64,000 nucleotides of DNA from Spirochaetia bacterium (GCA_965198005.1 CBDAOI010000001.1:64001-128000), one strand, 5' to 3'. Counted from the first letter of the stretch, positions 967 to 31,619 are shown. Translations and numbers: made by a program. Notes: generated by a model from the sequence alone, not told the origin.

Positions 967-1133
967 AGGAGGTGCAAAATGATACTCAAAGAACCGCACG
1001 CGCGCGCGGCGTGAGCCCGGGTGAACCCGCTGAGTCACACGCCGCGCGCTTGAGGAATTTGACTCAGACTGGCCGTCCGCGTTGCGGGCCCGAGAGTAGC
1101 CAGGGAGCGGCAATCCGCTCCGGAATACTCTCG
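967..1133 (+). promoter_or_regulatory. type-A leader: SD + 11-aa uORF (979-1014) + hairpins
   Basis: AGGAGGTG, MILKEPHARAA*, 12-bp stem 1002-1013/1038-1049, CGAGAGTA..TACTCTCG stem; conserved at 13356-13542. Confidence 0.6.
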
Positions 1134-1157
1134 AAAAATCTACATGCGGAGAAGCGT

Positions 1158-2960
1158 ATGAATATTGCAATTATTAGAATGACCTTCTTGGTTGCGTTGG
1201 TCCTGGTCCTGACCGCAACCGGCCTCTGGGCCGCTGGCGCAGACGAAGAGGGGTCGGCAGCGGCCGCCGACAAGAAGTATGTGACCGACCCCGTCACCGG
1301 CAAGGTGGTAGTGGCGCCAGAGTATGGCGGGACATTAACCTACGGCCGCAGATTTGGGTGGGGGACGAATACTGACCCCTATTTCGGCTGGGTCGACATG
1401 AACATCTCGGGCGTCAATGAGAAGATGGGTATCGGCGACTGGGGACTAAACAGGGACGAATATGACTTCAATTCGGGCCCGCTCCCCGTGTCCGCCGTAA
1501 CAGGGAGGCTGGCTGAAGGCTGGGATATTTCTCCCGACGGCCTCACCTATACCTTCAACATCCGAGAGGGCGTTAACTGGCATGATAAGCCGCCGGTGAA
1601 CGGTCGGGAACTGACTGCCCATGATGTCGAATACAACTATAACCGTATGTTGGGCCTGGGCGACTTCACCGACGCCGGACCTAGCCCCTTTGGTAGCGCC
1701 GCCGCACTCACCTCCATACCATTCGAATCGATAACGGCCACCGACAATCGCACGGTTGTCATGAAGCTGAAGGAGCCACACCTCCCTGCGCTGGGGCTTA
1801 TCCTCACCGACTACTTTGTTTACATAATGCCCCCCGAGGTAATCGAGCAACAAGGCGACATTAGGGATTGGACGGACCTCGTCGGCACCGGACCCTTTAT
1901 GCTGACTGAGTTTGTCGATGAGAGCTATATAACCTGGACCAAGAATCCTGACTACTGGAAGTTCGACGAAAAATACCCGCAGAACCGACTGCCCTACGTT
2001 GACGAGTTAACGTTACTGGTTATTCCAGAGGAAGCAACATTTATGGCGGGACTACGCTCAGGCGCGATTGATATCAGAGGCCCGGCAGGGGGATGGGCTA
2101 CTTCTCTCGACCAGGTAGAGAGCATCCAGCGGACCAACCCCGAAGTAGTGCTGCACACGCAATTTTTCCGCGCGAGTGATGCTTTTGCTACTAACGTGGA
2201 CAAGCCGCCCTTTAGCGACATCCGGGTGCGCAAGGCAATGCAGATGGCACTGGACCTCGAGACCATTAACAATACCTTCTATAAGGGTTATGCAGAGACG
2301 ACACCTCAAGGTCTGGTAGGGGTGAAAGGGTATTTCATCCCATTTGAAGAGTGGCCCGAAGAGGTCAAGAAGGGCTATATGTATGACCCGGAAGCTGCCG
2401 AGAAGCTCCTTGATGAGGCTGGATATCCGCGCGGCGCGGATGGCATTAGATTCAAGACCTCCCACATGATACACCCGGCAGGCAACAGCTTGGACTTTAC
2501 AGAAATAGTTGCCTCCTACTGGGCTGAGATTGGCGTCGATGTTGAGATTGATGTAGCCATCAGCGCCGAATGGACCGAGAGGCTGCGTACTTATGAAGGC
2601 ATCGTCAGCGGCATTTCTGGCACCATTTATGCCCCTCTCATGGTCGTAGGCTGGTATCACTCGGACACCCACAACATGAACCGCGCCCGATCCCAGTGGC
2701 CTGAGTTGGACGCCATGGTTGAAGCCGCCCAAGCGGCGACGACCATTGAAGATATGCAGCGGCTGATTGCAGAGGCAGATATGTACGCGATGGAGAATCA
2801 CTGGCTGGGATGGACTCCCAAACTTCCAGTATGGTGGTTGCTCCAGCCGTGGGTCATAGGCTATAGCGGTGAAGCAATGTACCTGGCACCTAACGAGGCG
2901 AATGACATCCTCGCCCGCCTCTGGATTGATAATGACCTGAAGGAAGCAATGGGGCATTAG
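1158..2960 (+). CDS. ABC substrate-binding protein family 5 (DppA/OppA-like), unit 1
   Basis: Signal peptide, APEYGG, LAEGW, WHDKPPVNGRELTA, GTGPF, DIRVRKA; GGAGA SD before ATG 1158. Confidence 0.95.
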   Translation: MNIAIIRMTFLVALVLVLTATGLWAAGADEEGSAAAADKKYVTDPVTGKVVVAPEYGGTLTYGRRFGWGTNTDPYFGWVDMNISGVNEKMGIGDWGLNRDEYDFNSGPLPVSAVTGRLAEGWDISPDGLTYTFNIREGVNWHDKPPVNGRELTAHDVEYNYNRMLGLGDFTDAGPSPFGSAAALTSIPFESITATDNRTVVMKLKEPHLPALGLILTDYFVYIMPPEVIEQQGDIRDWTDLVGTGPFMLTEFVDESYITWTKNPDYWKFDEKYPQNRLPYVDELTLLVIPEEATFMAGLRSGAIDIRGPAGGWATSLDQVESIQRTNPEVVLHTQFFRASDAFATNVDKPPFSDIRVRKAMQMALDLETINNTFYKGYAETTPQGLVGVKGYFIPFEEWPEEVKKGYMYDPEAAEKLLDEAGYPRGADGIRFKTSHMIHPAGNSLDFTEIVASYWAEIGVDVEIDVAISAEWTERLRTYEGIVSGISGTIYAPLMVVGWYHSDTHNMNRARSQWPELDAMVEAAQAATTIEDMQRLIAEADMYAMENHWLGWTPKLPVWWLLQPWVIGYSGEAMYLAPNEANDILARLWIDNDLKEAMGH

Positions 2961-2992
2961 GAGTTTCACAGCTTTTGCTGAGTTCAGGGAAG

Positions 2993-3028
2993 AAGGGAGC
3001 TGGGGGGCTTGAGTCTCCCGGCTCCCTT
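2993..3028 (+). terminator. intercistronic stem-loop after SBP
   Basis: AAGGGAGC...GCTCCCTT; related hairpin at ~15579-15616. Confidence 0.55.
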
Positions 3029-3062
3029 ACTTATGGGGGAATAAACGCGATGAGGTGGTGAC

Positions 3063-4064
3063 ATGAGAACCTATATTGTCAGGCGGTTATTGCTGATGAT
3101 CCCCACCTTGTTTGTATTGACCATCCTGGTGTTTCTCTCGGTGCGTTTCATCCCCGGCGACGTAATAGACGTAATGTTGGGTAAGGATGAATTCATCGGT
3201 CGTGAAATAGACCGTGAAGCTCTTGAGCATATGCTGGGATTGGACGTGCCTGTGCACGTGCAGTATGGACGCTGGATAGGAGTGTTGCCGACCCCTGACT
3301 GGCTTACCGGTGAGTCCCACTTTACAGGTCTCCTCGAGGGCAACCTCGGCCACTCACTGATTAGCGGCCAGGGGCCGGTCAAGGAGAAGATACTAGCTAG
3401 ACTGCCAGTCACCATTGAGCTCGGTGTCATGGCAATCGTAATCGGGCTCTTGATAGCGCTGCCCGTCGGCATCTACTCGGCGATTCGCCAGGATACCCCC
3501 GCCGACTACCTGGGGCGCTCCATCGCCATCCTCGGTCTGGCAACGCCTAACTTTTGGTTGGGTATTATGGTCATGATCTACCCGGTAATCTGGTGGGGCT
3601 GGTCGCCACCGATGAAGCTTATTCCTTTCACGGAAGACCCGCTGGCGAATCTCGGGATTCTCATCATTCCCAGCGTGATTCTGGGGACCTACCTTGCTGC
3701 AGCCACCATGCGGATGACGCGCACGATGATGCTGGAGGTGCTCAGGCAGGACTATATCAGGACGGCCTGGTCCAAGGGTCTCAATGAGAGGATAGTCGTT
3801 CTGAGACACGCCGTCAAGAATGCACTCATCCCGGTAGTTACTTTGATAGGCATGCAGTTGCCTATCCTGGTAGGTGGCTCCGTTATCATGGAGAACATAT
3901 TTAACCTGCCAGGGCTAGGTCGTCTCATGGTGACTGCACTGGAAGCCAGAGACTACCCGGTGATCTCCGGAGTAAACCTGGTTTTCGGCACCGCGGTTTT
4001 GGGAACAAATCTAATGATCGACATGATCTATCCTTATTTGGACCCCAGGGTCCGTTATAGGTAA
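3063..4064 (+). CDS. ABC permease, DppB/OppB-like, unit 1
   Basis: MRTYIVRRLL, EAA loop LEVLRQDYIRTAWSKG, C-terminal LDPRVRY. Confidence 0.95.
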   Translation: MRTYIVRRLLLMIPTLFVLTILVFLSVRFIPGDVIDVMLGKDEFIGREIDREALEHMLGLDVPVHVQYGRWIGVLPTPDWLTGESHFTGLLEGNLGHSLISGQGPVKEKILARLPVTIELGVMAIVIGLLIALPVGIYSAIRQDTPADYLGRSIAILGLATPNFWLGIMVMIYPVIWWGWSPPMKLIPFTEDPLANLGILIIPSVILGTYLAAATMRMTRTMMLEVLRQDYIRTAWSKGLNERIVVLRHAVKNALIPVVTLIGMQLPILVGGSVIMENIFNLPGLGRLMVTALEARDYPVISGVNLVFGTAVLGTNLMIDMIYPYLDPRVRYR

Positions 4065-4084
4065 AGGGGGGGGGAACCAGGAAT

Positions 4085-5017
4085 ATGAACGACTCCATAG
4101 GGATACCATCAGTAGAAATTGCGCCAAAGAGACGCTCACGGCTGGCTGATTCCTTTATCGGGCTGGTCAAGAAGAAGCCACTGGGTACTGCCGGCGGGAT
4201 TATCATATTGATATTCATTTTCGTCGCCATCTTTGCCGATGTTCTGGCTCCTTATCCATATAGTGAAATACACCTGACAGACAGGTTTCAGGGCGCATCA
4301 GCCCGGTATCTGCTGGGTACCGACCAGTTGGGGCGAGACTTCCTGAGCCGCCTTATCTACGGGGCTCGTCTTTCGTTAAGTGTCGGTATGGCCGCTACCA
4401 CTCTGCACGTTGTGGTGGCTGTCCTGATAGGCGGCATTTCAGGATTCTTTGGTGGTAAACTGGACTTGGGTGTGCAGAGATTTGTCGATGCCTGGATGGC
4501 TTTCCCGGGACTGCTCCTGTTGTTAACCATAATGTCCATAGCGGGACGGGGTCTGTTACAGATAATACTGGTGCTGGGGATAGCAGGGGGCATCGGCGGC
4601 TCAAGAGTAGTCAGAGGCGCCGTGATCGATGTGAAGGAGAACGCGTATTTCCAGGCAGTGGAAGTGATTGGCGCCTCGAAGTGGAGAATCTTCATCCGGC
4701 ATGTCCTGCCCAATATCATGGCTCCCGTTATTATCATATTCAGCATCACCGTCGGGGGGGTGATTATGTCTGAGGCCTCTCTGAGCTTCCTCGGATTCGG
4801 TCTGCCACCCAAGGTTCCTAGCTGGGGAGGTCTGCTCAGCCGGGAAGGACGTCAGTACATGGAGATGGCCCCATGGCTGGCTCTCTGGCCTGGTCTTTGC
4901 CTGACCATCACCGTCTTCAGTCTAAACATGTTCGGCGACGCCATGAGGGACCTGCTCGACCCGCGGCTCATCGGTGGTGCGGGGCGTCCGGGTGCGCAAG
5001 AGGCCAGATCGGTCTAG
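4085..5017 (+). CDS. ABC permease, DppC/OppC-like, unit 1
   Basis: LGTDQLGRD, RHVLPN, SLSFLGFG, GDAMRDLLDPR. Confidence 0.95.
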   Translation: MNDSIGIPSVEIAPKRRSRLADSFIGLVKKKPLGTAGGIIILIFIFVAIFADVLAPYPYSEIHLTDRFQGASARYLLGTDQLGRDFLSRLIYGARLSLSVGMAATTLHVVVAVLIGGISGFFGGKLDLGVQRFVDAWMAFPGLLLLLTIMSIAGRGLLQIILVLGIAGGIGGSRVVRGAVIDVKENAYFQAVEVIGASKWRIFIRHVLPNIMAPVIIIFSITVGGVIMSEASLSFLGFGLPPKVPSWGGLLSREGRQYMEMAPWLALWPGLCLTITVFSLNMFGDAMRDLLDPRLIGGAGRPGAQEARSV

Positions 5018-5170
5018 GCGAGTTGACGTACCGCATGCGGCTCCCAGTCGGGATCCGCGCCTGCGGCGGCGCAGGTGGCCACGCGCGTACGCCTGGGAAC
5101 GCGGCTACCCTACTCACCGATGTGCGACCGCCACCCACGCGGGTTCACGCCGGATGCACGGTGACCTCCC
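5018..5170 (+). repeat. conserved 3' flank of type-A units
   Basis: Matches ~17613-17768. Confidence 0.8.
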
Positions 5171-5275
5171 GTGGCGCCATCCCTGGCGCCCGGAACGCGC
5201 CCGAGGTCGACGAGCGCCGGGCTGGGTATGGGCGTGACCTGGCCGGTCAGCTCAAGGCGGCGCCTGGCATCGTAG

Positions 5276-5543
5276 TGTCTGCGCATCATCGGCCCCCCCC
5301 ACGATGCACGGTTGGTGCGTGCACACAACGAACCACGTGAGGAGGGTCAGAATGGCCAGGAGGACATCGACGATGGAACTACAGGATATCGTCCGACGAC
5401 TGAGAATGGGGCAGTCGATCAAGGCGATCAAGCGTGAGACCGGCAAGCACCGGCGCGTGATCCGCAGGCTGCTGCTGCTCGCCGAGCAGGAGGGGTGGCT
5501 GGATGAGCAGCATGAGGTGCCGTCCGAGCAGCAACTCCAGGAG
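5276..5543 (+). mobile_element. IS21-family relic (left end + IstA N-terminal HTH)
   Basis: TGTCTGCGCA end, GAGGAGG SD, MARRTSTMELQDIVRRLRMGQSIKAIKRETGKHRRVIRR. Confidence 0.7.
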
Positions 5544-5604
5544 GTCGCGTTGCTGATCGGCGGCACCACCCGCTATCGCCCGATCAGCCACGGGAGAGTT
5601 CGCT

Positions 5605-6090
5605 CTATCGTGCAAGGATCGCCTCGAGGTTGGCGTGGTCCACGAGCATGGTACGCTGGATCGTCGCCCCGGCGGGGGGTCGGGTGTCAATCTCGACCTT
5701 GATCGAGAGCTTCTGCTGCTGATGACCGGACAGACCGGCGTCCGCCAGGAGAGAGGCGGTGCGAATCCAGGCGACGTGCACCGGCGTGCGGTCGATCCAT
5801 CGAATCGTACTGTCGAATCCGGCGAGATGGAGGTCTCGCTTGAGCTTGCGCAGCCAGCCTACCGGATCGTACGCCGCGGGGGAGCGTTGCGAAAAATCGA
5901 GGTCCTCCGAGAAGCGCGGCAGGTCCTCAAGAAAGCGCAGCGCCGTCCCGCCGACAAACGCCAGCGCGCGCGCAGCTTCGCTCTCGTGCAGCGACCGCAT
6001 GATGAACGCCTGGAGGTACTCGCGCAGAGCGTTGAGCCTGCGTACCGGATCATCGTAACCCCGCGCAATTGCGAGCGCGCGCTCTTTCAC
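5605..6090 (-). pseudogene. AbiEii-type nucleotidyltransferase toxin, apparently internally deleted
   Basis: LAFVGGTALR..RFSEDLDF motif; only 161 aa, with no K..A..R..RD.YD C-terminal motif. Confidence 0.75.
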
Positions 6091-6728
6091 AGTTCCACAC
6101 CCGCCGGTTCCTGCGCAGCACAACACTCCCGCCACGCCTCGACGGCGCGCATGATCCTGGGTCTGGCCACCCGTTGCGTGTAGGCGTGCAAGCGATCGGA
6201 GTCGACCACCGCGCTCTGCTGAAACCGCATCTCCATCATCCTTGGGCGATCCCACTCTCCGGGGGTCAGGTGAAACAGGTCGAGGAGCGCTTTCTCCGGT
6301 GTGGCGATGAACACCTCGGCGCCGGCGATCGTCACCGCGTGGTAGCCAAAGAACAAAGTTCGCTTGAGGTTGGTGTAATGGAACGCCCCGAAGGGATTCT
6401 CGAACCGCCGCGGGGCGCGGGTGGTTACGCTGGTGTATTCCGCCACGGCTTCCGGAATCAATCCGTAGAACCCGAGCGCCCAGAGTCCGCTCAGATAGGA
6501 GGGGGAATACAGCGCGTTGGCCAGGGTGGCCGACGACACGGGCACGCGCCGATAGCGCTCGGCGAGGGTGTACATGCCACGGCGCAGCGGCACCAGCTTG
6601 CCCGCCCGGCTCCACCGGTGGAGCTGACTGACGAGGCTGGGATGAGACTCCTCCGTAAGTTGCACGACCGTGGCCAGATCGAAGTAGGGCATCTTGCCAA
6701 GGATATCGACGGCAGCGTCAAGGCGCAT
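6087..6728 (-). CDS. AbiEi-type antitoxin/transcription regulator
   Basis: LRRGMY, PSYLSGLWALGFYGLIPE, ATPEKALLD; overlaps the toxin start. Confidence 0.85.
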   Translation of the reverse strand: MRLDAAVDILGKMPYFDLATVVQLTEESHPSLVSQLHRWSRAGKLVPLRRGMYTLAERYRRVPVSSATLANALYSPSYLSGLWALGFYGLIPEAVAEYTSVTTRAPRRFENPFGAFHYTNLKRTLFFGYHAVTIAGAEVFIATPEKALLDLFHLTPGEWDRPRMMEMRFQQSAVVDSDRLHAYTQRVARPRIMRAVEAWRECCAAQEPAGVEL

Positions 6729-6811: not shown

Positions 6812-7156
6812 TACCGAGCGACCCCGGTACGGCGAGTCAACATCGACAAGCCGGACGGGGGCACACGACCGCTGGGGGTGGCCGCGCTGGAGGACAAGAT
6901 CGTCCAGAAGGCCGTCGTGGACGTGATCCTGACTCCGATCTATGAGGAGGAATTTCTCGGGATCAGCTATGGGTTTCGACCGGGGCGCGGGGCACACGAT
7001 GCGTTGGACGCACTGGCCTACGCCATCGAACGGCGCGAAGTGAACTGGATATTGGACGCGGACATCCGCGCCTACTTCGACTCGATCTCGCGGGACTGGT
7101 TGATCAGATTCCTGGAGCATCGGATTGGAGACCGGCGCGTGTTGCGGCTGATCGTC
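6812..7156 (+). pseudogene. group II intron reverse transcriptase fragment (N-terminal RT blocks)
   Basis: VRRVNIDKPDGGTRPLG, SYGFRPGRGAHDALDAL, WILDADIRAYFD; no YADD. Confidence 0.9.
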
Positions 7157-7262
7157 ATGCTCGCCTTTGAAGGAGCCCTTGCGGAGGTTCGGCGGCCGCT
7201 GCGCTGCCAGGATGTCGAGCTTGTTGGCTGGATCGACCCGCAGGTACAGTTCGGTCGATCCG
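7157..7262 (-). pseudogene. tyrosine recombinase C-terminal fragment (RIT-element-like)
   Basis: STELYLRVDPANKLDILAAQRPPNLRKGSFKG resembles RitC C-termini. Confidence 0.5.
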
Positions 7263-7278
7263 CGACGGACAGTCGCGG

Positions 7279-7390
7279 TCAGAGGCGGCCGACGCTGCCG
7301 CGCAGCCGGGGGTCGAGCAGGTCGCGCAGCGCGTCGCCGAACATGTTGATGCTGTAGACCACAATGGTCAGGCACAGGCCCGGCCAGATC
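7279..7390 (-). pseudogene. orphan dppC 3' end
   Basis: IWPGLCLTIVVYSINMFGDALRDLLDPRLRGSVGRL*. Confidence 0.9.
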
Positions 7391-7637
7391 GTCAACGGCG
7401 GCGACCATGCCGCGCTGGGGCGGCACGCGGAGGCGCAAGGTCCGCGCTGCCCGGCGGGCCAGGAAGTCCGCAACCATCGAGAGCTGCTCAATCGCGATCA
7501 GCTTCTCGCGCAACGGGAGCGCGCGGTCACCACGACCACTGTAGCATGCTGCGCGGTTGCGGTCGCCGCCGCTGGATCTGCTCCGGGGGCTGGCGGCATA
7601 GTTGACTTTTTGCATTTCCATTGCATAATCACCAGCA

Positions 7638-8861
7638 ATGAGCCTGCCCTACATCAACCGCTCGCTGGAACCGGTGCTCGAGCAGGCGGCCGCGGAGTTT
7701 CCCGCCGTCGTCCTGACCGGGCCGCGCCAGTCCGGCAAGACAACCCTGCTGCACCATCTGTTCGGGGAACGGTACCGCTACGTGTCTCTGGAGCCGCCAG
7801 ATGTTCGGACAGCCGCCGCGAATGACCCGCGCGGGTTCCTGGAACGGTATTCGGCGCCAGTCATCTTCGACGAGGTGCAGTATGCGCCCGACCTGCTGCC
7901 CTACGTCAAGGAGAAGATCGACGCCAGCCGCGCCACGGGCGGTCAATACCTGCTGACCGGCTCACAGAACCTGCTGCTGGCCGAGAAGGTAACCGAGTCG
8001 CTGGCGGGCCGCGCCGCCATGCTCCGCCTGTTGCCGTTGTCGAGGCGGGAGGCCGAGGGACGGCCGCGGCGACCCCTGGCTTGGGAACGCAAGCCGTCCC
8101 CGTCGGCGACAACGGCCGGCGGGTTCGGCGAACTGTGGCAGGGTTTTCTGCGCGGCGGGTACCCGGAACTCGCGATCCAACCCGATCGGGATCTCTCCCT
8201 GTGGCATGCCAGCTACATCCAGACCTATCTCGAGCGCGACCTGCGCACCCTGCGGCAGGTCGGCGACCTGACCCAGTATCAGAATTTCCTGCGGCTGCTG
8301 GCGGCGCGCAGTGCTCAGTTGCTGAGCCTGACCGACGTGGCACGCGACCTCGGAGTTGCCGTCAATACGATCAAGGCGTGGCTCGCCGTGCTCGAGGCCA
8401 CCTACCAGGTGATCGTGCTGCGCCCCTACTTCGCCAACGTCGGCAAGCGGCTGGTCAAGACCCCGAAGGTGTATTTCTCCGATGTCGGCACGCTCTGCTA
8501 TCTCGCGGGCCTCAAGGACCCCGAGCATGCCGCCTCCGGCCCGATGGGCGGAGCGATCATGGAGACGGCGGTGTTGTCCGAAATCGTGCGCACGCTGACG
8601 CATCGGGGCATCGACCCCCAGGTCTTCTTCTGGCGGACCGTGGCGGGCACGGAAGTGGACTTTGTGGTCGAGGTCGGCGGCCGGCTCGTCCCCATCGAGG
8701 TAAAGCTGTCCGCGACGCCGCGCCCGGCCATGGCCGCCGCCATCAAGACATTCCACGGCGACATGCCCAGCGCGGCACTGCCTGGATATGTGGTTCATCC
8801 GGGCGACATCCACCTGCCCCTCGGCGCGGGCGTGACTGCGTTGCCGTTCGTCGACCTGTAG
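7638..8861 (+). CDS. AAA+ ATPase (AAA_14 + DUF4143 type)
   Basis: GPRQSGKTT, IFDEVQ, LTGSQ, GGYPE, EVDFV..PIEVK; TTGACT..CATAAT promoter just upstream. Confidence 0.9.
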   Translation: MSLPYINRSLEPVLEQAAAEFPAVVLTGPRQSGKTTLLHHLFGERYRYVSLEPPDVRTAAANDPRGFLERYSAPVIFDEVQYAPDLLPYVKEKIDASRATGGQYLLTGSQNLLLAEKVTESLAGRAAMLRLLPLSRREAEGRPRRPLAWERKPSPSATTAGGFGELWQGFLRGGYPELAIQPDRDLSLWHASYIQTYLERDLRTLRQVGDLTQYQNFLRLLAARSAQLLSLTDVARDLGVAVNTIKAWLAVLEATYQVIVLRPYFANVGKRLVKTPKVYFSDVGTLCYLAGLKDPEHAASGPMGGAIMETAVLSEIVRTLTHRGIDPQVFFWRTVAGTEVDFVVEVGGRLVPIEVKLSATPRPAMAAAIKTFHGDMPSAALPGYVVHPGDIHLPLGAGVTALPFVDL

Positions 8862-9148
8862 TGCGGGCCGGCAGTAGCCCCTCAGTGATCACTTGAGATT
8901 CTGCACCCTGCATGCCGTTAACGTAGCCATGATGAAACAGGTCGATGAGCGCGGCGCTGGAGTACTGGGGAGTTCTCATTGTGGCACCATTACGAATGAC
9001 ATAATCGCAATAGTGCCACAAGGGCCGGTAGCATTCAACAGAAACGCCACAACAAGCCGTCCTACCGCGTCCATACCGCCACCCAGCGTACCGATAACGG
9101 CTTGATTACGTCTATCTACGTGGATTTATATTTGCGCCGGCCCTTAGC

Positions 9149-9572
9149 GGACTCATCATCGCCGTTCCGATCGGCATCTACTCGGCAATTCGCCAGTATA
9201 CGATGACCGACTACGCCGGCCGGGCGGTCGCCATCTTCGGCCTGGCGACCCCCAACTTCTGGCTGGGACTGATGGTTATGATCTACCCGGCCATCTGGTG
9301 GGGCTGGGCGCCACCGCTGACCTACGTCCGCTTCAGCGAAGACCCATGGGGCAATCTCGGCATTCTGATCCTCCCCGCGCTGATTCTGGGCACCTACCTG
9401 CGCTATGAGTCGCCGGTCGACGCGGCCGGAGCCGGCCGCGGAGGCGCAGGCGGAGGCGCACGCGGTGGTGGCGGCCCAAGCGGCGGCGCGGGTGCCGGAC
9501 CCTCCGCGGCGGGCGCCCCTGCACCGGCGCGCCGGCGACCGGTGGCCAGATTCTTGTCGCCGCTCCTCGTCC
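9149..9572 (+). pseudogene. deleted type-B dppB/dppC remnant
   Basis: LIIAVPIGIYSAIRQY..LILGTYL fused to RYE, followed by the Gly-rich DppC N-terminus. Confidence 0.9.
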
Positions 9573-9644
9573 AGATACGGCAACGGGTCGCGCGCCAGCC
9601 GAGGCCTGTCGGCCGAGTCTGACACCGACTATCGGTAGCCATGC

Positions 9645-9890
9645 CTATTCGTCCACTCGCCGTAGCGCTTCATCCATCACTTGTCGCGAGAGATGAAGAC
9701 CAGCGATCATCATTTCCTCAATGACGGGCCGATCCATTCCCGCGATCCGGGCCGCCCACTCTTGCGAAATGCGTCCCTGCTGATACCACTGGATGGCAGC
9801 AGCCAGTCGCAACTCCTGGTCGAGGGTTCCAGGCGCACACTGCAGCAGGGAACAAACCGCGTCCGGTAGTTCTAATCTTACTTGAGTCAT
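9645..9890 (-). pseudogene. UPF0175 antitoxin N-terminus fused to DUF3368 (PIN) C-terminus
   Basis: ELRLAAAIQWYQQGRISQEWAARIAGMDR joined to PVIEEMMIAGLHLSRQVMDEALRRVDE. Confidence 0.65.
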
Positions 9891-10004
9891 TGATCCACTA
9901 TGGGTTGCCGCGTCCTTGGGTGGCTGACCGGCACCGGTCAGCATCTCTCCTTCTATTATGATGGCTGACGGCGGTAGGTTCAAGGGGTGGTGATGGTATG
10001 GATG

Positions 10005-23130: not shown

Positions 23131-23391
23131 TCAGCCGGCCCTGTGCTTTGCCAGACGATGTTGATCCAGTGCCTGGCGCAGAAAGGACTTGATCACGGCC
23201 TGGCGACTGACATTCAGCTCGGCAGCGAGCTGATCTAGTTCCTGCAGCATCCCAGCCGTAAAGTCGACGTTCACGCCTCTCACCGGCTGCTTCATCGTCC
23301 CTCGGTTGGTGAAGTACGGTGAAATGTCGTTTCCGCCATCCGCCAGGTCGGCGATCTCGTCAGCAGTCGGTCGGCTGGCTGTTCTCTTCAT
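23131..23391 (-). CDS. CopG/BrnA-like antitoxin
   Basis: VNVDFTAGMLQELDQLAAELNVSRQAVIK (RHH pattern). Confidence 0.85.
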   Translation of the reverse strand: MKRTASRPTADEIADLADGGNDISPYFTNRGTMKQPVRGVNVDFTAGMLQELDQLAAELNVSRQAVIKSFLRQALDQHRLAKHRAG

Positions 23392-23653
23392 ATAGTCTCT
23401 CTTCCTCTCTCGTCGATCGCCACAGCGTCACCAAATGATAGTACTCGCCGTCTCCATCTTCCCGGACTTCGAATACCAGCGAATACAACCGTTCCCGCAC
23501 CCAGCCAACAGCGCGGAACTGCTCCGGATCGTCAGACCTGCAGTCCTCGTAGTACGGATGCGCGAAGATTCCCTGCGCTTCCTCAAAACCGATACCTCGC
23601 TTCGGATTGTTGCGAAGCATTCGACTCTTGTTCTGGTCAAACTTGAAACGCAT
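23360..23653 (-). CDS. BrnT-family toxin
   Basis: MRFKFDQNKS..KRGIGFEEAQGIF..TREEERLYE. Confidence 0.85.
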   Translation of the reverse strand: MRFKFDQNKSRMLRNNPKRGIGFEEAQGIFAHPYYEDCRSDDPEQFRAVGWVRERLYSLVFEVREDGDGEYYHLVTLWRSTREEERLYEENSQPTDC

Positions 23654-24051: not shown

Positions 24052-24582
24052 GGAAGCCGCAGCCCGCGACCGGGAAGCGGCCGCCCGCGAGCGGGAGGTG
24101 GCAGCCCGCCAGGGGCGTGCCATGAACAAGCGCTGGGGCGAGTTGGCCAACAAAATGGGTACCGTCGTCGAGGACATCGTGGCACCCAGTGTCCGCCGCC
24201 TGGCCGGTGAGGTGTTCGACTGTGGCGACATGCGGTACTTCGGCACCCGCGTATCCGTCAAGCGCAGCGATGATCCCTCCCGCGAGCGCGAGTTCGACGC
24301 GCTCTACGTGGGCACTCGGGGGGTGCTGCTCAACGAGACCAAGTCCTCGGCGCGCATCGAAGATGCGCGCGCGTTCGATGAGTTTCTGCGCGGCAACCAG
24401 TTTGGGCTCTACTTTCCGCAGTACGCGGAGCTGCCGATCGTGCCGGCGTTCTCGTCGCTGAGATTGCGGACAGTATCGTGACGTATCTGAGCCGGCGCGG
24501 GATCTACGCCCTGACGATGGGAGACGAGGCGATGCAGGTGCTCAACCTGAACGCGGTGCGCAGCCGGCGTACCGCTCCGTGA
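24052..24582 (+). pseudogene. coiled-coil + PD-(D/E)XK nuclease-like protein, 5'-truncated and frameshifted near 24461
   Basis: NKRWGELANKMGTVVEDIVAP, EFD..NETKS; C-terminus IADSIVTYLSRRGIYAL is in another frame. Confidence 0.7.
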
Positions 24583-24860: not shown

Positions 24861-24910
24861 CTGTCTACGCTCCTGTCTACGCTCCTGTCTACGCTCCCCC
24901 CCCCCCCCCC
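24861..24910. repeat. 3 x 12-bp tandem repeat + C15 tract
   Basis: (CTGTCTACGCTC)3, then C run 24896-24910. Confidence 0.95.
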
Positions 24911-24949
24911 GGGCCGGGGGCCATTTCCATACAACCTCAGAAACACTAA

Positions 24950-25237
24950 CGAGTTAGCCGGGCGCGACCGCTACCTTCTGCGGAGCCTGCGTGGTCCGCT
25001 GACCGCGGCGCTGCCTCGCGGCCGATTCGTCGTCGGCCGGTCACCTCACCAGGCGGGAACTCCCGGCAACGGGCCGCTCGCCCGCGGTCCACCCGCCGGC
25101 GCCCCAGGCACTGCTCGTGACCGAGGGTGCCGCCCTCGCTGTTCGGTCCCTGCGAATCGCAGGCATACCGCGAGAGTCGGCGCGGGCCGGCACTGAATTC
25201 AGCACTCTCGAAGAAACGAAGGTTTGGAGGAAACCTC
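24950..25237 (+). promoter_or_regulatory. type-B structured leader, copy 2
   Basis: Matches 18789-19075. Confidence 0.6.
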
Positions 25238-27046
25238 ATGATACGAAATTGTAGACTATGGGTTGCGGTACTGATCGGGTTCGTCCTGGCCGCGACCGAC
25301 GCGTCGGCGGCGCCCGCCGGCGAGGAAGCGGCCGCGGCTGCGGACAAGCCGATGGTGACCGACCCGACCACCGGCAAGGTGGTAACCGCGCCAGAGTACG
25401 GCGGCACGCTGACCTACCCGTACAAGCTGTTCGGGGAGACCACCGACCCGTCGATCACAGGACACTACGCCGGCTGGCAGATCACCGCGGTCAACGAGAA
25501 GCTTTCGAAGGGAGACTGGGGTGCTCCCCGAGACGAGTTCAGCTTTACCGGGTGGTATGTGCCGATCTCGGGCTTCAAGGGCCACCTGGCCGAGAGCTGG
25601 GAGCAGCCGGACGACCGCACGCTGATCGTCAAAATCAAACCGGGGGTCCACTGGCACGACAAGCCGCCGGTCAACGGGCGCGAGCTCACCGCCGAAGACG
25701 TCGCCTTTACCTACCGCCGCCATGCCGGCCTGCTCGACTTCGAGCCCGTATTCGTCGCCGAGGTTGAGAGCTATCCGTGGGAATCCATCGAAGCCCTTGA
25801 CCGATACACGGTCGAGTTCAAGCTGAGCGAGCCGCGCGCCGGCCTGGCCCGGGCGATCCTCGGCCAGGCCAACATATGGGTGCTACCTCGCGAGGTCATC
25901 GAGCAGCACGGTGATTACGCCGACTGGCGAAACGTGGTCGGCACCGGGCCGTTCATGCTCACTGACTACGTCGAGGGCGTCTCGATGACCAGGACGCGCA
26001 ATCCCAACTACCACGACTTCGACGAGAAGTATCCGGAGAACCGGCTGCCCTACGTCGACGAGCTGAAGGGTCTGTTCATGGCGGAGGAGGCGACCCGCCT
26101 CGCCGCGTTTCGCACCGGCCAGGTCGACATGATCCACGTTGCCGGCGGCGCCACCGAGATCAAGACCTTCGAGGTGATAGAGTCGGTGCTGCGCACCAAC
26201 CCCGACACCCAGGTGGGTCCCTACTTCCTGCGCGCGCTCGGGCAGATCGGCCTGAACATCCGTAGGCCGCCGTTCGACGACATCCGCGTCCGCCAGGCAA
26301 TGCAGATGGCGATCGACCGCGAGGCGGTTAACGAGAGCTACTATGGCGGGTACGCGCTGTGGAAGCCCCAGGGCATGTTCGGCAACGCGACCGGACCCTA
26401 TTTCCTTCCATTCGACGAGTGGCCAAAGGAGCTCCAGGACCAATACCGCTACGACCCGGAGAAGGCGGAGCAATTGCTCGACGAGGCCGGCTACCCACGC
26501 GGCGCGGATGGGGTGCGGTTCAAGGTCACCCACGAACACCGCGACGTCATCGACCTGGGCCTCGCCGAGATCGCGGCCGGCTACTTCAAAGAGATCGGCG
26601 TGGAGGTGGAGATCGACATCTACGACACCACCACTTGGGTCAATCGCCGCGTCGACGGGGTTCACGAGATGACCACCGGCGATTTGGGCTTCGATTCACC
26701 CCCCGAACTCATCATAGGCTTCGCCCGTTTTCTTGCAACGACTCAGGAGCCGCACAATTGGAACGAGTGGCTGGGTGGGATTCCCAACGCCACGCTGACT
26801 CGGCTGTATAACGAGTTCCAAACAGCGACCAGCGAGGCGGAGCTGATTCGAATCGCCAAGGAGTACGACCAGTACGTCATTTCGCAGCATTTTCAGGTAT
26901 GGACCGGCAAGTCGCCAGGATTCCAGGTGGCGCATCCGTGGGTCAAGGGCTGGAACGGCGAGACGTTCGTGCAGCAAGACGCCTATCACCAGGTTCTCGC
27001 CCGGCTCTGGCTCGACCGGGACCTGAAGGCAGAAATGGGGTTTTGA
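25238..27046 (+). CDS. ABC substrate-binding protein family 5, unit 4
   Basis: Same length as unit 3 and a close paralog. Confidence 0.95.
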   Translation: MIRNCRLWVAVLIGFVLAATDASAAPAGEEAAAAADKPMVTDPTTGKVVTAPEYGGTLTYPYKLFGETTDPSITGHYAGWQITAVNEKLSKGDWGAPRDEFSFTGWYVPISGFKGHLAESWEQPDDRTLIVKIKPGVHWHDKPPVNGRELTAEDVAFTYRRHAGLLDFEPVFVAEVESYPWESIEALDRYTVEFKLSEPRAGLARAILGQANIWVLPREVIEQHGDYADWRNVVGTGPFMLTDYVEGVSMTRTRNPNYHDFDEKYPENRLPYVDELKGLFMAEEATRLAAFRTGQVDMIHVAGGATEIKTFEVIESVLRTNPDTQVGPYFLRALGQIGLNIRRPPFDDIRVRQAMQMAIDREAVNESYYGGYALWKPQGMFGNATGPYFLPFDEWPKELQDQYRYDPEKAEQLLDEAGYPRGADGVRFKVTHEHRDVIDLGLAEIAAGYFKEIGVEVEIDIYDTTTWVNRRVDGVHEMTTGDLGFDSPPELIIGFARFLATTQEPHNWNEWLGGIPNATLTRLYNEFQTATSEAELIRIAKEYDQYVISQHFQVWTGKSPGFQVAHPWVKGWNGETFVQQDAYHQVLARLWLDRDLKAEMGF

Positions 27047-27157
27047 CGCGAGCGGAGCTCGCGTTTAGCGTCAGCGTTTGACTACGAACACGGGGTGGCG
27101 GGAACAGCCTGCCACCCCTTCTTATGGTGCCGTGATGATGAGAGGAGGTGAGCTGAG

Positions 27158-28145
27158 ATGCGGGCGTATGTGATCAGGCGGGTACTGCTGGTGATCCCGA
27201 CCCTGTTCATCGTAACCGTCCTGGTGTTTCTCTCGGTTCGCTTCATTCCCGGCGACATCATCGACGTGATGATCGGCCGGATGAGCTTCGGAGCAGCAGG
27301 AAGCCTAGCTAGGCGTCACGATCGATGAGGAGGCTCTGAAGAGACGGCTCGGGCTCGATAAACCCGTCCACGTGCAGTACGCGAAGTGGATCGGTGACAT
27401 CGTCCTGCGCGGCACCCTCGGCCACTCGCTGTACAGCGGCTCGTCGGCCGGCACCACGGTGGAGGAGAAGCTCGCCGGCAGGGCCGGGGTCACGGTGGAG
27501 CTGGGGCTGCTGGCGATCCTCACCGGGCTCATCATCGCCGCGCCGATCGGCATCTACTCGGCGATTCGCCAGTACACGGTGGCCGACTACGCCGGCCGGG
27601 CGGTCGCCATCTTCGGCCTGGCGACCCCCAACTTCTGGCTGGGACTGATGGTGATGATCTACCCCGCCATCTGGTGGGGCTGGACGCCGCCGCTGACCCA
27701 CGTCGGCTTCTCCGAGGACCCCTGGGCCAATCTCGGCATTCTGATCGTTCCCGCCCTGATTCTGGGCACCTACCTGGCGGCGAGCACGATGCGCATGACG
27801 CGCACGATGATGCTGGAGGTGCTGCGCCAGGACTACGTGCGGACCGCCTGGGCCAAGGGCGTGGGGGAGCGGAGGGTGGTGCTGAGCCACGCGGTGAAGA
27901 ACGCGCTCATCCCGGTGGTGACCCTGGTGGCGCTGCAACTCCCCATCATCGCCGGCGGCTCGGTGATCATCGAGAACATCTTCAATCTGCCGGGGCTCGG
28001 GCGCCTGATGCTGACCGCCCTCAACGAGCGCGACTACCCGGTGGTTTCCGGCATCAACCTGCTGTTCGCCTCGGTGGTGGTGGTGATCAACCTCGGCACC
28101 GACCTGACCTACGCGCTGCTGGACCCGCGGGTGCGCTATGAGTGA
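27158..28145 (+). pseudogene. DppB-like permease, unit 4, frameshifted by a CTAG duplication
   Basis: CTAGCTAG at 27305-27312; removing 4 bp gives one 328-codon ORF. Confidence 0.9.
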
Positions 28146-29262
28146 GCCGGTGCCGGGCGATGCGGCCGGGGCCGGCCGCGCAGGCCGAGGCGCAGGCGGA
28201 GGCGCAGGCGCAGGCGGAGGCGCAGGCGCAGGCGGAGGCGGAGACGCAGGCCGTGGCGCAGGCGCCCGCGGTGGTGGCGGACCAAGCGGAGGCACCCGTG
28301 GCGGCCCAAGCGGAGGCACCCGTGGCGGACCCTCCGCGGCGGGCGCTCCTGCACCGGCGCGCCGGCGACCGGTGGCCAGCTTCCTCTCGCGGTTGCTGAA
28401 GGAGCAGCCGCTGGGAGCCGTTGGCGCCCTCATCGTGCTGGCGTTGGTGTTCATCACCATCTTCGCCGCGCAGCTCGCGCCCTACGAATTCGACCGCGGC
28501 CGGGTGCAGGACCGGATGCAGGGTCCGTCGGCCGCGCACCTGCTGGGCACCGACCACGTTGGCCGCGACTTCCTGAGCCGCCTCATCATCGGCGCGCGCC
28601 TGTCGATCACGGTCGGGTTGGCGGCGACGTCGCTGAACGTGATCGTCGCGCTGCTGATCGGCGGCACCACCGGCTTCGTCGGCGGCCGGCTCGACATCTA
28701 CGCGCAGCGGTTCGTGGATGCGTGGATGTCGTTTCCGGGGCTGCTGTTGCTGCTCACCATCATGTCGATCGCCGGCCGCGGCGTGGTGCAGATCATCGTC
28801 GTGCTCGGGGTGGCCGGCGGCATTCCCGCGTCGCGGGTGGTGCGCGGCGCGGTGATCGGGGTCAAGGAGAACGCCTACTTCCAGGCCGCGCAGGCGACCG
28901 GCGCCCGCACGCTGCGCACGCTCGTCCGTCACGTGCTGCCCAACATCGCGGCGCCGCTGATCGTCGTGTTCAGCATCAACGTCGGCGGCGTGATCATCGC
29001 CGAGGCGTCGCTGAGCTTCCTCGGCTTCGGCCTGCCGGCGACCGTTCCGAGCTGGGGCGGCATGCTGAGCCGCGAGGGCCGCCAGTACATGGAGATTGCA
29101 CCGCGGCTGGCGCTGTGGCCGGGCCTGTGCCTGACGGTGACCGTCTACGCCCTCAACCTGTTCGGCGACGCGGTGCGCGACCTGCTGGACCCGCGGCTAC
29201 GCGGCGCCGCCGGCCGCTACGGGGGCGGGCGCCGCCCACGCCGCACGCCGCGCCGCGGCTGA
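28138..29262 (+). CDS. DppC-like permease with Gly/Ala-rich N-terminal tail, unit 4
   Basis: Close paralog of unit 3. Confidence 0.93.
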   Translation: MSEPVPGDAAGAGRAGRGAGGGAGAGGGAGAGGGGDAGRGAGARGGGGPSGGTRGGPSGGTRGGPSAAGAPAPARRRPVASFLSRLLKEQPLGAVGALIVLALVFITIFAAQLAPYEFDRGRVQDRMQGPSAAHLLGTDHVGRDFLSRLIIGARLSITVGLAATSLNVIVALLIGGTTGFVGGRLDIYAQRFVDAWMSFPGLLLLLTIMSIAGRGVVQIIVVLGVAGGIPASRVVRGAVIGVKENAYFQAAQATGARTLRTLVRHVLPNIAAPLIVVFSINVGGVIIAEASLSFLGFGLPATVPSWGGMLSREGRQYMEIAPRLALWPGLCLTVTVYALNLFGDAVRDLLDPRLRGAAGRYGGGRRPRRTPRRG

Positions 29263-29279
29263 GCAGTCGCCCGGCCTGC

Positions 29280-29330
29280 TGGCGCTGGCGGAGGCGGTGT
29301 TCCACTTCGAGCGTTTCATGGCGGCGACCG
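29280..29330 (+). pseudogene. RES toxin fragment
   Basis: 49 of 51 nt match 11103-11153. Confidence 0.85.
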
Positions 29331-29436
29331 GGACGGCCGTCGGGTGGCTCCGCTCCTCGTCCGGAAGCTGCTCAGGCGTATCGATCATCCGGAGTTGCCG
29401 TTGTACCTGTCTGGCGGTCATGGCGACCGTCCAGCT

Positions 29437-29574
29437 CTACCAGAGGATCGACACCGGATAGCCCTTGACGAGCGGGTCCGGCGTAACCAGAGAGCAACCC
29501 ATAATCGCCTGGGCAACCAGGATGCGGTCATCGACCAACCAAAGGAACGTGCAGGTATCCAGCAGCAGGCGCAC
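29437..29574 (-). pseudogene. PIN/VapC toxin collapsed to 45 aa
   Basis: VRLLLDTCTFLWLVD joined to DRILVAQAIMGCSLVTPDPLVKGYPVSILW*. Confidence 0.8.
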
Positions 29575-29627
29575 GCCCACCGTACGGTTAGGCGCGCACC
29601 AGGGCGGTTGATCGATACCGCGTCGTG

Positions 29628-29761
29628 CGCCAGTACATGGAGTGGCGCCGCGCTTGGCGATCTGGCCGGGCCTGTGCCTGACGATCGTGGTCTACAGCAT
29701 CAACATGTTCGGCGACGCGCTACGCGACCTGCTCGACCCCCGGCTGCGCGGCAGCGTCTGA
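29628..29761 (+). pseudogene. orphan dppC 3' end
   Basis: RQYME..LAIWPGLCLTIVVYSINMFGDALRDLLDPRLRGSV*; near-identical to the 7279-7390 piece. Confidence 0.9.
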
Positions 29762-29771
29762 CCGCGACTCC

Positions 29772-30149
29772 CTATCCGTGCCGCGTGGCGCCAGCACTCG
29801 CGTGTAGGCGGGTCAGGGCCGTGACGAGGTGTTGGTTGAGGCTCACACCCTCGTCTTCGGCCGCGCTCGCCAGCGCTCGATGCAGGCTTCTGGGAATGCG
29901 CAGCGTAACGCGGCCACTGAACTCATCCTGCGGGCTGGTCGGGGGCGGGAACGGCCGGTCGGTCTCGGCAAACATCGCGGCTGCCGTCTCGATGGTGTCG
30001 ATGGTCAGATCGTAGGCTGCCTGTGCGGACTCCGCATATTCCCGAACGTCCGGCAGCTCCTTGACGCGAGCCTCGAACAGTGGTTCGCCTTCGAACACGA
30101 ACTCCCGCACCGTGATGTTGTACGCATACGGGTTGAGTCTCTTCATCAC
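29772..30149 (-). CDS. HicB-family antitoxin
   Basis: ARVKELPDV, FSGRVTLRIPRSLHRALASAAEDEGVSLNQ. Confidence 0.9.
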   Translation of the reverse strand: MMKRLNPYAYNITVREFVFEGEPLFEARVKELPDVREYAESAQAAYDLTIDTIETAAAMFAETDRPFPPPTSPQDEFSGRVTLRIPRSLHRALASAAEDEGVSLNQHLVTALTRLHASAGATRHG

Positions 30150-30442
30150 TTCTGACCTCCCGGCAGTTTCTGCAAGTCATCCGCATGGGACGCGAGCAAC
30201 GAGCGGATACTCGCCACGTACACCGGCTTGACCTGCGGGTTTTTCCCATGGCCGCAAGAAAAGGCGGCCGACGTAAAGACATCCAGCCCCGGATGGGTGA
30301 TGACCTTGTGGCCCTGCCTTCGGCCATCGCGGACGGAAAAGCCGAGCCCGGTCAGCAACCGGATCATCGCGTCGCACCGAATACGCGCGCCGGTGGACAG
30401 ATAGGCGATGGCAGCGTGGACACCCGGTCCAACCCCCGGCAT
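30146..30442 (-). CDS. HicA-like toxin
   Basis: LLTGLGFSVRDGRRQGHKVITHP..VKPVYV; overlaps hicB; operator-like ATGACAC-N8-GTGTCAT at 30441-30462. Confidence 0.8.
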   Translation of the reverse strand: MPGVGPGVHAAIAYLSTGARIRCDAMIRLLTGLGFSVRDGRRQGHKVITHPGLDVFTSAAFSCGHGKNPQVKPVYVASIRSLLASHADDLQKLPGGQK

Positions 30443-30471
30443 GACACCATATATAGTGTCATACGTGTCTT

Positions 30472-30799
30472 CGGTCCACCCGCCGGCGCCCCAGGCACTG
30501 CTCGTGACCGAGGGTGCCGCCCTCGCTGTTCGGTCCCTGCGAATCGCAGGCATACCGCGAGAGTCGGCGCGGGCTGGAGGTGCTGCGCCAGGACAGCTGA
30601 TAGTGGTCCTGCCATGCTCAGCCGCGAAGGGCGTGAGTACATGCAGCAGGCGCCATGGCTGGCGCTCTGGCCGGGCCTGTGCCTGACGATCGTGGTCTAC
30701 AGTCTGAACATGTTCGGCGATGCGGTGCGGGACCTGCTCGACCCGCGGCTCAGGGGTGGTGGGGGACGTCTCGGTGCCGCTGCCGCCGGGTCGGTCTAG
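30472..30799 (+). pseudogene. collapsed ABC unit (leader + dppB piece + two dppC pieces)
   Basis: 30472-30574 matches leader 18923-19025; 30573-30594 is dppB LEVLRQD; then QLIVVL; then MLSREG..LDPRLRG. Confidence 0.85.
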
Positions 30800-30965
30800 C
30801 GCCTCCTGCAGGTGCTCCGTGACAGTCGTTTCTGCGCGGTGGGCGGCTGCATCGCCCGCGGCCGGCGCTCGGTCACCGCTTTGCCGCGCCGGGGAGGGGA
30901 TAATCGGGATCGACTCGTTGACAGATGCACTTGGCGGCCCGATACTCGTCATTGAGAATGACCAC

Positions 30966-31619
30966 ATGGACACCACGGTTGCCGCGCGACATTACCGGGG
31001 ACTCCGCATCGTCACGTCCGACGACTGCACGGTGGCTGACCTGTCGGCGCTGCAGCGGTTCTGGACCGAAGCGCAGTACCTGACGCTGACCAACCACAGT
31101 CATCGTCTGATCGAGTTCACCGACGGCTGCATCGAGATCCTGCCCATGCCTACCCAACGACACCAAGCGATTTCGCGGTTCCTGTTCCTGGCATTGGTTG
31201 CGGCCGTTCGCAACCGCGGAGGGGACGTGTTCTACGCTCCGCTGCGTCTGCGGATTCGCAACGGCAAGTTCCGCGAGCCGGACATCATGCTCGTCCGCAA
31301 GGCCGGAGACCCGCGCTGTCGCGATGACTTCTGGATCGGCGCCGACCTGGTCATGGAGGTGGTGAGTCCTGACGATCCGTACCGCGACCTCGTCGAGAAG
31401 CGCATCGACTACGCGGAGGCGGGCATTCCCGAATACTGGATCGTCAATCCCATCGACGACACGGTGACCGTGCTCGTCCTCGGCGACGGCGAATACCGGG
31501 AGCACGGCGTGTTCCGCGCGGGCGCGTACGCCGATTCGCCAAACCTGCCCGACGTCTCGATTTCCGTAAGCGACACGTTCGAAGCGGCACTGCCGCGTCA
31601 CCACGGCGCATCGCCATAG
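30966..31619 (+). CDS. Uma2-family endonuclease
   Basis: REPDI, ADLVMEVVSP, KRIDYAEAGIPEYWIV. Confidence 0.92.
   Translation: MDTTVAARHYRGLRIVTSDDCTVADLSALQRFWTEAQYLTLTNHSHRLIEFTDGCIEILPMPTQRHQAISRFLFLALVAAVRNRGGDVFYAPLRLRIRNGKFREPDIMLVRKAGDPRCRDDFWIGADLVMEVVSPDDPYRDLVEKRIDYAEAGIPEYWIVNPIDDTVTVLVLGDGEYREHGVFRAGAYADSPNLPDVSISVSDTFEAALPRHHGASP

Follow-up and report, generated by a model that had tools for sequence, protein, structure and literature searches.

Importers of the Dpp/Opp family 5 (peptide/opine/nickel) consist of an SBP_bac_5 substrate-binding protein (SBP) and two BPD_transp_1 permeases, one of them with an OppC_N domain. In another setting, the orphan arrays of Vibrio type VI secretion system (T6SS)/Rhs genes, the available part of PMC5361080 proposes sequential displacement by homology-facilitated illegitimate recombination. 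The DNA analysed here, a stretch of 64,000 nucleotides (nt) from Spirochaetia bacterium (GCA_965198005.1, CBDAOI010000001.1:64001-128000; G000:C1:64001-128000 in our numbering), hereafter the window, carries between positions 967 and 31,619 four units of the order SBP-dppB-dppC, numbered 1 to 4 from the left, together with orphan dppC 3' ends and various toxin-antitoxin (TA) and defence genes. The units share the domains of the Dpp/Opp importers but differ from them in lacking adjacent ATPase genes, in numbering about 100 full copies per genome, and in SBPs that score below the cut-offs of the available models. An earlier note, made from the sequence alone, had described a cassette-like, integron-like array in which the dppC 3' end acts as a homology arm for the gain, loss and shuffling of units with their TA cargo. 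The present analysis favours, with moderate confidence, the birth and death of a horizontally traded importer family, the erosion of which spares TA modules.

Copy number and decay of the importer family

In the genome (G000; 4.89 Mb, 66% GC, four contigs), profiles built from its own genes recovered 127 full SBP, 138 dppB and 129 dppC genes, as well as 87 dppC 3' fragments. Full-length collinear SBP-dppB-dppC units number 100, and the family as a whole accounts for 12.3% of the genome, so that about 100 three-gene importer units without an ATPase of their own fill 12% of its DNA. Among ten same-genus genomes used for comparison, all of other species (G001, G003, G005, G006 and G007 among those cited below), dppC matches ranged from 0 to at least 113, and the gene order of the window was not found in any of the ten. 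The nearest relatives of the window dppC genes were found in records titled Spirochaetia metagenome-assembled genomes (MAGs; 92-97% amino-acid identity), and more remote ones in records titled Deltaproteobacteria, Dehalococcoidia or "bacterium" (about 65-85%).

Over the first 60 rows of each alignment, median amino-acid identity was 51% for the SBPs and 74-76% for the permeases. A search with one query detected seven dppD/F-like genes, all of them more than 2.5 kb away from any family dppC end, suggesting that ATPases must be shared between units. The divergent SBPs thus probably form an uptake repertoire served by few shared ATPases. As to substrates, every NCBIfam SBP model scored far below its cut-off, and no solved SBP relative was found at E<=1e-30. 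As to habitat, RNA runs labelled sponge metagenome matched at only 0.17 of words. Blocks of at least 450 nt at 94% identity or more join 21 unit pairs, 14 of which share dppB/dppC but not the SBP, a pattern mostly explained by faster change of the SBP. Swapping of SBPs onto shared permeases may account for some cases, the value at four-fold sites being lower by at least 0.2 in only 3 of 29 pairs.

Base composition and distribution both point to horizontal trade. GC content at third codon positions (GC3) fell below 0.7 in 49 of 125 dppC genes against 6 of 2203 other called genes, a comparison in which the gene caller misses low-GC genes, and 42 loci from records not titled Spirochaetia match the SBP, dppB and dppC genes of this genome at up to 95, 92 and 89% nucleotide identity, respectively. 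Together with the low GC of units 1 and 2, these data suggest that units have been exchanged between lineages. From identity and GC content, units would arrive via horizontal transfer and local duplication, the copied unit beginning with the poly-C tract and leader and ending near the dppC stop, and a fresh junction with non-homologous sequence would arise there.

The control region of the units is itself conserved. Its leader occurs in 87 genome copies, 80 of them preceding an SBP, and the copies at 967-1157 and 13357-13569 display a ribosome-binding site (RBS), an upstream open reading frame (uORF) of 11 codons, a long GC hairpin and a possible pseudoknot; a search with the unit-2 copy returned no Rfam family. 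The genome has 121 C/G tracts of at least nine residues; 88 of them, all in the orientation seen in the window, precede a family SBP by no more than 3 kb, and none does so in the opposite orientation. The length of poly-C tracts varies between public runs, and phase variation by these tracts, which head the control regions, is possible.

Decay of the family is also apparent. Of the 87 dppC fragments, 36 are plain deletion scars, each joined, with a gap of no more than 100 nt, to an SBP, dppB or 5' dppC piece of the same unit type on its upstream side. Thirteen, two of them in the window, follow another dppC end at a distance of up to 5 kb, and for 21 the 5 kb upstream contain no family piece. 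The left ends of the fragments are widely scattered, from profile position 136 to 832 of 885, so that a single attachment point, and hence a fixed att site in dppC, is excluded. The same relic types are present in other genomes. Two orphans of the window have telling counterparts: the one at 29628 and the HicB gene behind it match an intact unit of G003 (L100) at 95.5% and 97%, and the one ending at 10250 is 97% identical to the end of unit 4, which keeps 51 nt of the same RES gene, indicating that one block with a shared dppC end and RES gene was duplicated and then eroded. Redundant units would thus collapse by deletion into dppC ends, leader scraps and fused pieces, as seen directly in the 36 scars and by extension in the remaining fragments.

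Besides single units, a block exceeding 10 kb, in which units and orphans occur together with a PIN relic, is present twice in opposite orientation at about 99-100% identity (G000:C1:1400-15100 and C4:1725300-1739000); this may be a recent duplication or an assembly overlap.

Toxin-antitoxin genes and the edges of the unit

TA and defence genes were mapped in six frames with nine Pfam families and merged into 178 loci outside the window, the counts being lower bounds. Such a gene was found within 1 kb behind 34 of 208 dppC ends. Control frequencies were lower, at 52 of 944 for operon ends (p=1.2e-6) and 26 of 431 for control ends situated near units (p=7e-5). The left edges of units, upstream of the poly-C tract, were no different (13/83 within 1 kb; p=1.0 versus dppC ends). 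In the relatives, where our own tally of Pfam output covered up to two open reading frames (ORFs) per flank, TA/defence-like genes were present at 15 of 70 downstream flanks (70 of 78 loci being scored downstream) and at 13 of 58 upstream flanks, while many downstream neighbours of units were catabolic enzymes. The enrichment of TA genes beside units is therefore real, about three-fold and symmetric, and the equal upstream enrichment, in the genome and in relatives, rules out a downstream polarity. The expectation of the earlier note that TA genes would be commoner behind dppC than behind other gene ends was borne out, at about three-fold over control operon ends, but its statement that such cargo follows most dppC ends does not extend beyond the window: genome-wide the proportion is 16-23% (within 1-1.5 kb, again a lower bound), making the window an extreme sample. 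Of the 178 loci, 47 follow a dppC end by no more than 1.5 kb, and 49 are located more than 8 kb away from any family piece.

A second line of evidence comes from the positions at which copies stop matching. In G001, G003, G005 and G006, six loci of the unit-3/4 clade adjoin neighbours of five kinds (an aminotransferase, an M28 peptidase, a helix-turn-helix gene, a MazE-like pair, found twice, and an insertion sequence (IS) end), none of which equals that in the window, in agreement with the earlier proposal of modular units with fast neighbour turnover. Identity between these copies passes the conserved DPRL motif and stops variably in the tail or shortly past the stop codon. Among 13 dppC pairs at least 94% identical over the last 300 nt, 11 share at most 100 nt beyond the gene, and nine, judged by eye, cease to match either in the tail or no more than about 25 nt from the stop. 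Since near-identical copies diverge at or just past the stop, dppC seems to be mainly the right edge of the moving unit rather than a crossover arm. Consistently, the 130 full dppC genes include one pair with near-identical last 120 nt on a divergent body, compared with 44 pairs alike throughout.

Another contig carries three units with 97-99% identity in dppB and dppC (G000:C3:720000-742000). The leader of one differs from those of the other two, and no more than 20 nt from the stop each unit meets a neighbour of its own.

In the scenario of birth and death, the spacers between units would gain mobile TA/defence genes, IS elements, RIT elements, group II introns and an element with XerC-type recombinase and primase genes, on both sides alike, as the association found here suggests. 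Selection would subsequently remove deletions that cut a working importer or split a toxin from its antitoxin, and erosion under such selection would push the surviving TA genes against dppC stops and relics. Several observations weigh against this scenario. TA genes are not clearly commoner beside orphans (16/83) than beside full dppC genes (18/125), which leaves the protection of relics unproven, and the genome-wide map took in just nine families. Relics of the 3' side outnumber those of the 5' side, with 34 dppC ends lacking a collinear upstream piece against seven lone SBP starts plus leader-only scraps, an excess that directional displacement would fit too, and the 13 fragments behind another dppC end repeat the displacement pattern of 28138-31619. 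The junctions of the three nearly identical units on C3, 6-20 nt from the stop, are sharper than slow erosion predicts. Finally, crossovers at the 3' end do occur: the dppC behind which HicAB lies in G006 is another paralogue, and in the pairs L051/L062 and L015/L022, from other MAGs, identity changes to about 97-100% within the dppC tail.

A XerC/primase element and competing explanations

The explanations considered below are not mutually exclusive. The first concerns a non-coding repeat, named T, with 78 matches in the genome, which follows 34 dppC ends and also stands inverted before some unit promoters. T is the end of an element that comprises a Toprim/P-loop primase-like gene (Atlas), a tyrosine recombinase, an HTH_3 gene and a DprA/SLOG-like gene, and that converges on dppC ends in G001, G003 and G005 too. 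The best NCBIfam model for the recombinase was PRK01287 XerC (261 versus a cut-off of 371), whereas the integron integrase model TIGR02249 scored 135 against a cut-off of 265. No viral contig was found for the recombinase, and the DprA/SLOG-like gene had just weak partial metagenome matches. Other origins of T were considered: no intact gene of which T could be a relic was found, and the idea that T is a trait of one dppC clade is weak (21 tree changes versus a shuffled mean of 24.8 and a minimum of 20).

T contains a dif-shaped site of 28 bp, with inverted arms matching at 7 of 10 positions and a 6-bp spacer, present in 26 genome copies with four combinations of left and right flanks. At one mismatch, the site was found 25 times in G000, 11 in G001, three in G003, four in G005 and once in G006, and in none of 16 other genomes. 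Thirty-nine sites were examined (20 of the 26 own and all 19 foreign ones), and 21 of them had a Pfam TA-type gene within 1.2 kb on the element side, compared with 6 of 29 plain Spirochaetia dppC ends (p=0.007; Pfam thresholds 1e-3 versus 1e-4). In G001 (L188:4146-8239), dppC and T are followed by three direct sites with, in turn, an RHH-like gene, HicB plus DUF5615, and a GNAT-like relic. These data allow the tentative suggestion that a XerC-type, primase-bearing element seeded dif-like sites on the flanks of units and that its recombinase stacks TA/defence cassettes there. Each unit would then gain a renewable addiction/defence array, invertible or excisable between flanking repeats, amounting to an integron-like capture of TA genes unrelated to IntI and coupled to about 100 importers, of which the window would be an eroded example.

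One copy of the element (L113:1625-8632; G000:C4:1993625-2000632) has an intact recombinase-primase-HTH core and two inverted DprA/SLOG-T arms between two divergent units, and this core could invert through its oppositely oriented sites. At G000:C4:1609000-1610000 and 2000700-2001200, the interval from T to the poly-C tract is occupied by tandem repeats of about 100 bp, each containing a TTGACA-like box, which are possibly stacked promoters.

An unlikely alternative is sequential displacement by homology-facilitated illegitimate recombination, in which an incoming unit anchors in the resident leader, SBP or dppB, joins illegitimately further on, and pushes the resident dppC end with its cargo downstream as an orphan. 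This would account for the order full unit, cargo, orphan, cargo, orphan at 28138-31619, for the fragments behind another dppC end with their scattered breakpoints, and for right edges that are sharp near the stop together with the excess of 3' relics. However, the 36 fragments fused to their own upstream pieces and the 21 without a family piece nearby do not follow from it, the leader relic at 30472 requires a deletion, and the available part of PMC5361080 calls displacement events rare.

We consider it rather unlikely that the XerC-type element built TA cassette arrays at T, abutting dppC stops and unit promoters, with the window as their decayed remains. The position of T behind 34 dppC ends, the occurrence of site and element in the same genomes, the four flank combinations, the contrast between sites and plain ends, and the G001 array all speak for such arrays. 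Nevertheless, the 28-bp site is absent from the window, which retains only truncated T relics behind units 1 and 2, with no T at units 3 and 4 or at the orphans. The contrast in TA content drops to 21/39 versus 10/29 (p=0.14) when unannotated small ORFs are counted as TA, and some of the sites share cargo by descent. Conservation of the site (0.884) shows no excess over the best flanks (0.869 and 0.831; p=0.56), the repeats of 103-311 bp around it suffice for ordinary recombination, and cargo matches do not extend from site to site. In the nine-family map, TA genes within 1 kb are no more frequent at dppC ends that bear T (4/32) than at the others (30/176). Moreover, the marker gene of the element was not found in G006 or G007, despite 88 and 41 dppC matches, respectively, and the element was accordingly dismissed as the engine of the whole family expansion.

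The proposal of the earlier note that the dppC 3' end is the homology arm of an integron-like array now appears very unlikely. The three-fold enrichment of TA genes behind dppC, the presence of HicAB behind two different dppC paralogues, the two identity switches inside the tail, and a stretch of 60 nt before the DPRL motif that is 82% identical even among distant paralogues would all agree with it. Nonetheless, TA genes are equally enriched upstream, swapped ends are limited to one pair against 44, the junction falls past the conserved part in 9 of the 13 pairs and in every unit-3/4 copy, and recombination inside dppC cannot yield new junctions between dppC and cargo. Its likening to an integron fared no better, as breakpoints are scattered and no integron integrase was found either among the scanned window ORFs or among window PF00589 matches, two of the PF00589 genes of the genome having been typed.

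Mis-assembly of paralogues, a concern given the hundreds of similar copies and the lack of any public-run contig spanning the whole stretch, is highly improbable as the source of the orphans and mosaic order, since the genome is in four contigs, relic types recur in other genomes, and three junctions are bridged with 0-1 differences by contigs of the public sequencing runs X1, X7 and X8 aligned to the window: dppC-BrnA (X1, X8), PIN relic-orphan 29628 (X7) and orphan 30799-Uma2 (X1). One of the best-matching runs may be the source sample, but X7 and X8 were produced in different studies; nothing was drawn from the joints within public-run contigs, which have short sides and many contributing paralogues.

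Layout of the window and comparison with known systems

The places of the four units and four orphans given earlier, and their SBP_bac_5, BPD_transp_1 and BPD_transp_1+OppC_N domains, were confirmed, with the qualification that the dppB of unit 4 is interrupted, leaving three intact units. On the left, a tract of 13 C (478-490, plus strand) forms the edge of the control region of unit 1. It is followed by a 5' relic of a group II intron (784-966, minus strand; Rfam RF02005 at 784-929), antisense at the leader and inserted exactly at the RBS, a junction also seen in many other leaders. The conserved leader (967-1157, plus) contains the RBS, the uORF (979-1014), the GC hairpin and a structured 3' part, and precedes unit 1 (1158-5017, plus; SBP 1158-2960, dppB 3063-4064, dppC 4085-5017), with about 54-57% GC. 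A run of nine G (4066-4074) lies between its dppB and dppC, right before the dppC start, with a similar run at L146:16119-16131.

Behind unit 1, a relic of T (5018-5292, plus) is cut about 35 nt short of the 28-bp site by an IS21 left end with an istA 5' relic (5291-5545, plus; 98% identical to other genome copies). Then come, on the minus strand, an AbiEi antitoxin (PF13338) and a truncated AbiEii of 161 amino acids (PF08843 positions 3-114 of 238) at 5605-6728, both also read from translations. A group II intron reverse transcriptase relic (plus; PF00078, RVT_1) is fused at 6812-7270 to a 3' relic on the minus strand that we take, from its translation, to be a RIT recombinase. For relics, the labels RIT, IS21, HicA-like, GNAT-like and PD-(D/E)XK are putative assignments made from translations. 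The cargo names assigned earlier to AbiEii, AbiEi, Xre, RES, BrnT, RHH_1/CopG, HicB and Uma2 agree with Pfam; of the relic cargo, the reverse transcriptase is matched by RVT_1, while PIN, IS21, RIT and HicA-like are read from translations and genome matches.

The first orphan is indeed a dppC 3' piece, though it lies on the minus strand and extends over 7279-7408 (profile positions 752-874), with 93.8% identity to a full gene on C4. An intact AAA_14 + DUF4143 gene identified by Pfam (7638-8861, plus), unlisted before, separates it from what had been taken for a single dppC end at 10005-10250. This piece is a dppC 3' end, but one made of two pieces (profile positions 569-657 and 753-876) fused by internal deletion, and its position behind a dppB fragment (9143-9400), a dppC N-terminal tail and a UPF0175/DUF3368 relic (9645-9983, minus) identifies 9143-10250 (plus) as a collapsed fifth unit. 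Next to it lies an intact Xre-RES TA pair (10371-11485, plus; Pfam and translations), of which a 90% copy occurs in G001 with no dppC alongside.

A 5'-truncated DDE_Tnp_1 insertion sequence that retains its right end (11633-12985, plus), its ORF lacking about 90-100 N-terminal residues relative to other copies, precedes unit 2 (13012-17612, plus; about 55% GC), composed of a poly-C tract (13012-13022), leader, SBP (13570-15363), dppB and dppC (16680-17612). T relics and a second relic of the DDE_Tnp_1 insertion sequence fill 17613-18787 (plus). Unit 3 (18788-23118, plus) has a leader from another family, an SBP at 19076-20884, dppB and dppC, and its orthologues in G001, G005 and G006 are 95-96% identical. 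Convergent on its dppC are a BrnT toxin and a CopG-type antitoxin (23131-23653, minus; Pfam), the junction falling within the final codons of the dppC tail. After a relic (24122-24481, plus; 83-84% amino-acid identity to two longer genome ORFs, no Pfam match) of what is presumably a PD-(D/E)XK-like gene, unit 4 (24896-29262, plus) comprises a tract of 15 C (24896-24910), a leader, an SBP (25238-27046), a dppB broken into ORFs 27158-27328 and 27372-28145, and dppC; its three genes are 92, 92 and 97% identical to those of unit 3.

Region 29280-29580 holds the 51-nt RES relic (plus; 96% identical to the RES gene of the window itself) and an internally deleted PIN relic (minus). The orphan at 29628-29761 (plus), the unit of which survives intact in G003 with the same HicB cargo, is followed by HicB (PF05534) and a HicA-like gene read from translation only (29772-30442, minus). 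A leader relic of the unit-3/4 type (30472-30577, plus; 99% identical to the leaders of units 3 and 4), also unlisted before, sits between the HicA-like gene and the last orphan (30614-30799, plus), which derives from another paralogue (94.3% to a full gene on C4). Although some orphan paralogues were described as not intact in the window, all four orphans have full-length paralogues elsewhere in the genome, at 93.8-96.9% identity. An intact Uma2-family nuclease gene (30966-31619, plus; Pfam) closes the region. Xre-RES, BrnTA, HicAB, Uma2 and AAA+DUF4143 look intact. Three cargos of the window, in which TA pairs would penalise loss according to the earlier note, are already broken, namely AbiEii, the PIN gene and, behind unit 4, the RES piece. 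As reported earlier, no intact integrase or transposase was seen in window positions 1-36000, and the genome has 46 tyrosine-recombinase (PF00589) matches. Further right, minus-strand SBP, dppB and leader relics of the family and a copy of the reverse transcriptase piece occur at 61685-62452, 53316-53430 and 62854-63781.

Spending 12% of the DNA on about 100 ATPase-less importers that would be traded across lineages represents an extreme case of uptake-repertoire evolution. The analysis narrows its mechanism, with dppC as an edge of the moving unit instead of a docking arm and TA genes on both flanks, and its new elements are the symmetry test, the junction mapping and the link between TA genes and the 28-bp site. 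In the literature covered, which leaves out most subscription journals, no paper was found describing this expansion or the element. The Vibrio T6SS/Rhs arrays, as far as the available part of PMC5361080 goes, share with it variable downstream genes, the lack of a dedicated integrase and what may be a comparable order, a full gene followed by strings of conserved 3' fragments. In contrast, the fragment here is a permease end, the cargo is no partner of it, most fragments would be internal-deletion scars, and swaps of 3' ends are rare, the displacement-array test for exchanged ends having been made on full genes only. A gene-targeting integrative island would leave orphans with one crossover point, unlike the scattered starts found here. 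Sedentary chromosomal integrons, according to the part of PMC13108822 at hand, likewise have TA modules interspersed in a variable array, but here no IntI was found, and the units, of about 4.5 kb and with their own promoter and leader, are dispersed genome-wide; breakpoints are scattered instead of forming attC-bounded fixed junctions, no attC model having been run. The loci bearing T come closest to the Acinetobacter dif modules (PMC6449649, accessible part), with many 28-bp sites of two arms and a spacer and with TA cargo. They differ in the dedicated, element-borne recombinase nearby, in sites embedded in repeats of 100-300 bp and direct in the one array seen, and in that recombination is putative here. 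A XerC-like recombinase beside accumulating small defence genes also characterizes the polyimmunity loci next to XerC/D recombinases (PMC3482391, accessible part), although the cargo here consists of TA genes next to importer operons rather than immunity genes. If the 28-bp site is functional, it would define a new cassette-capture system and offer a direct assay.

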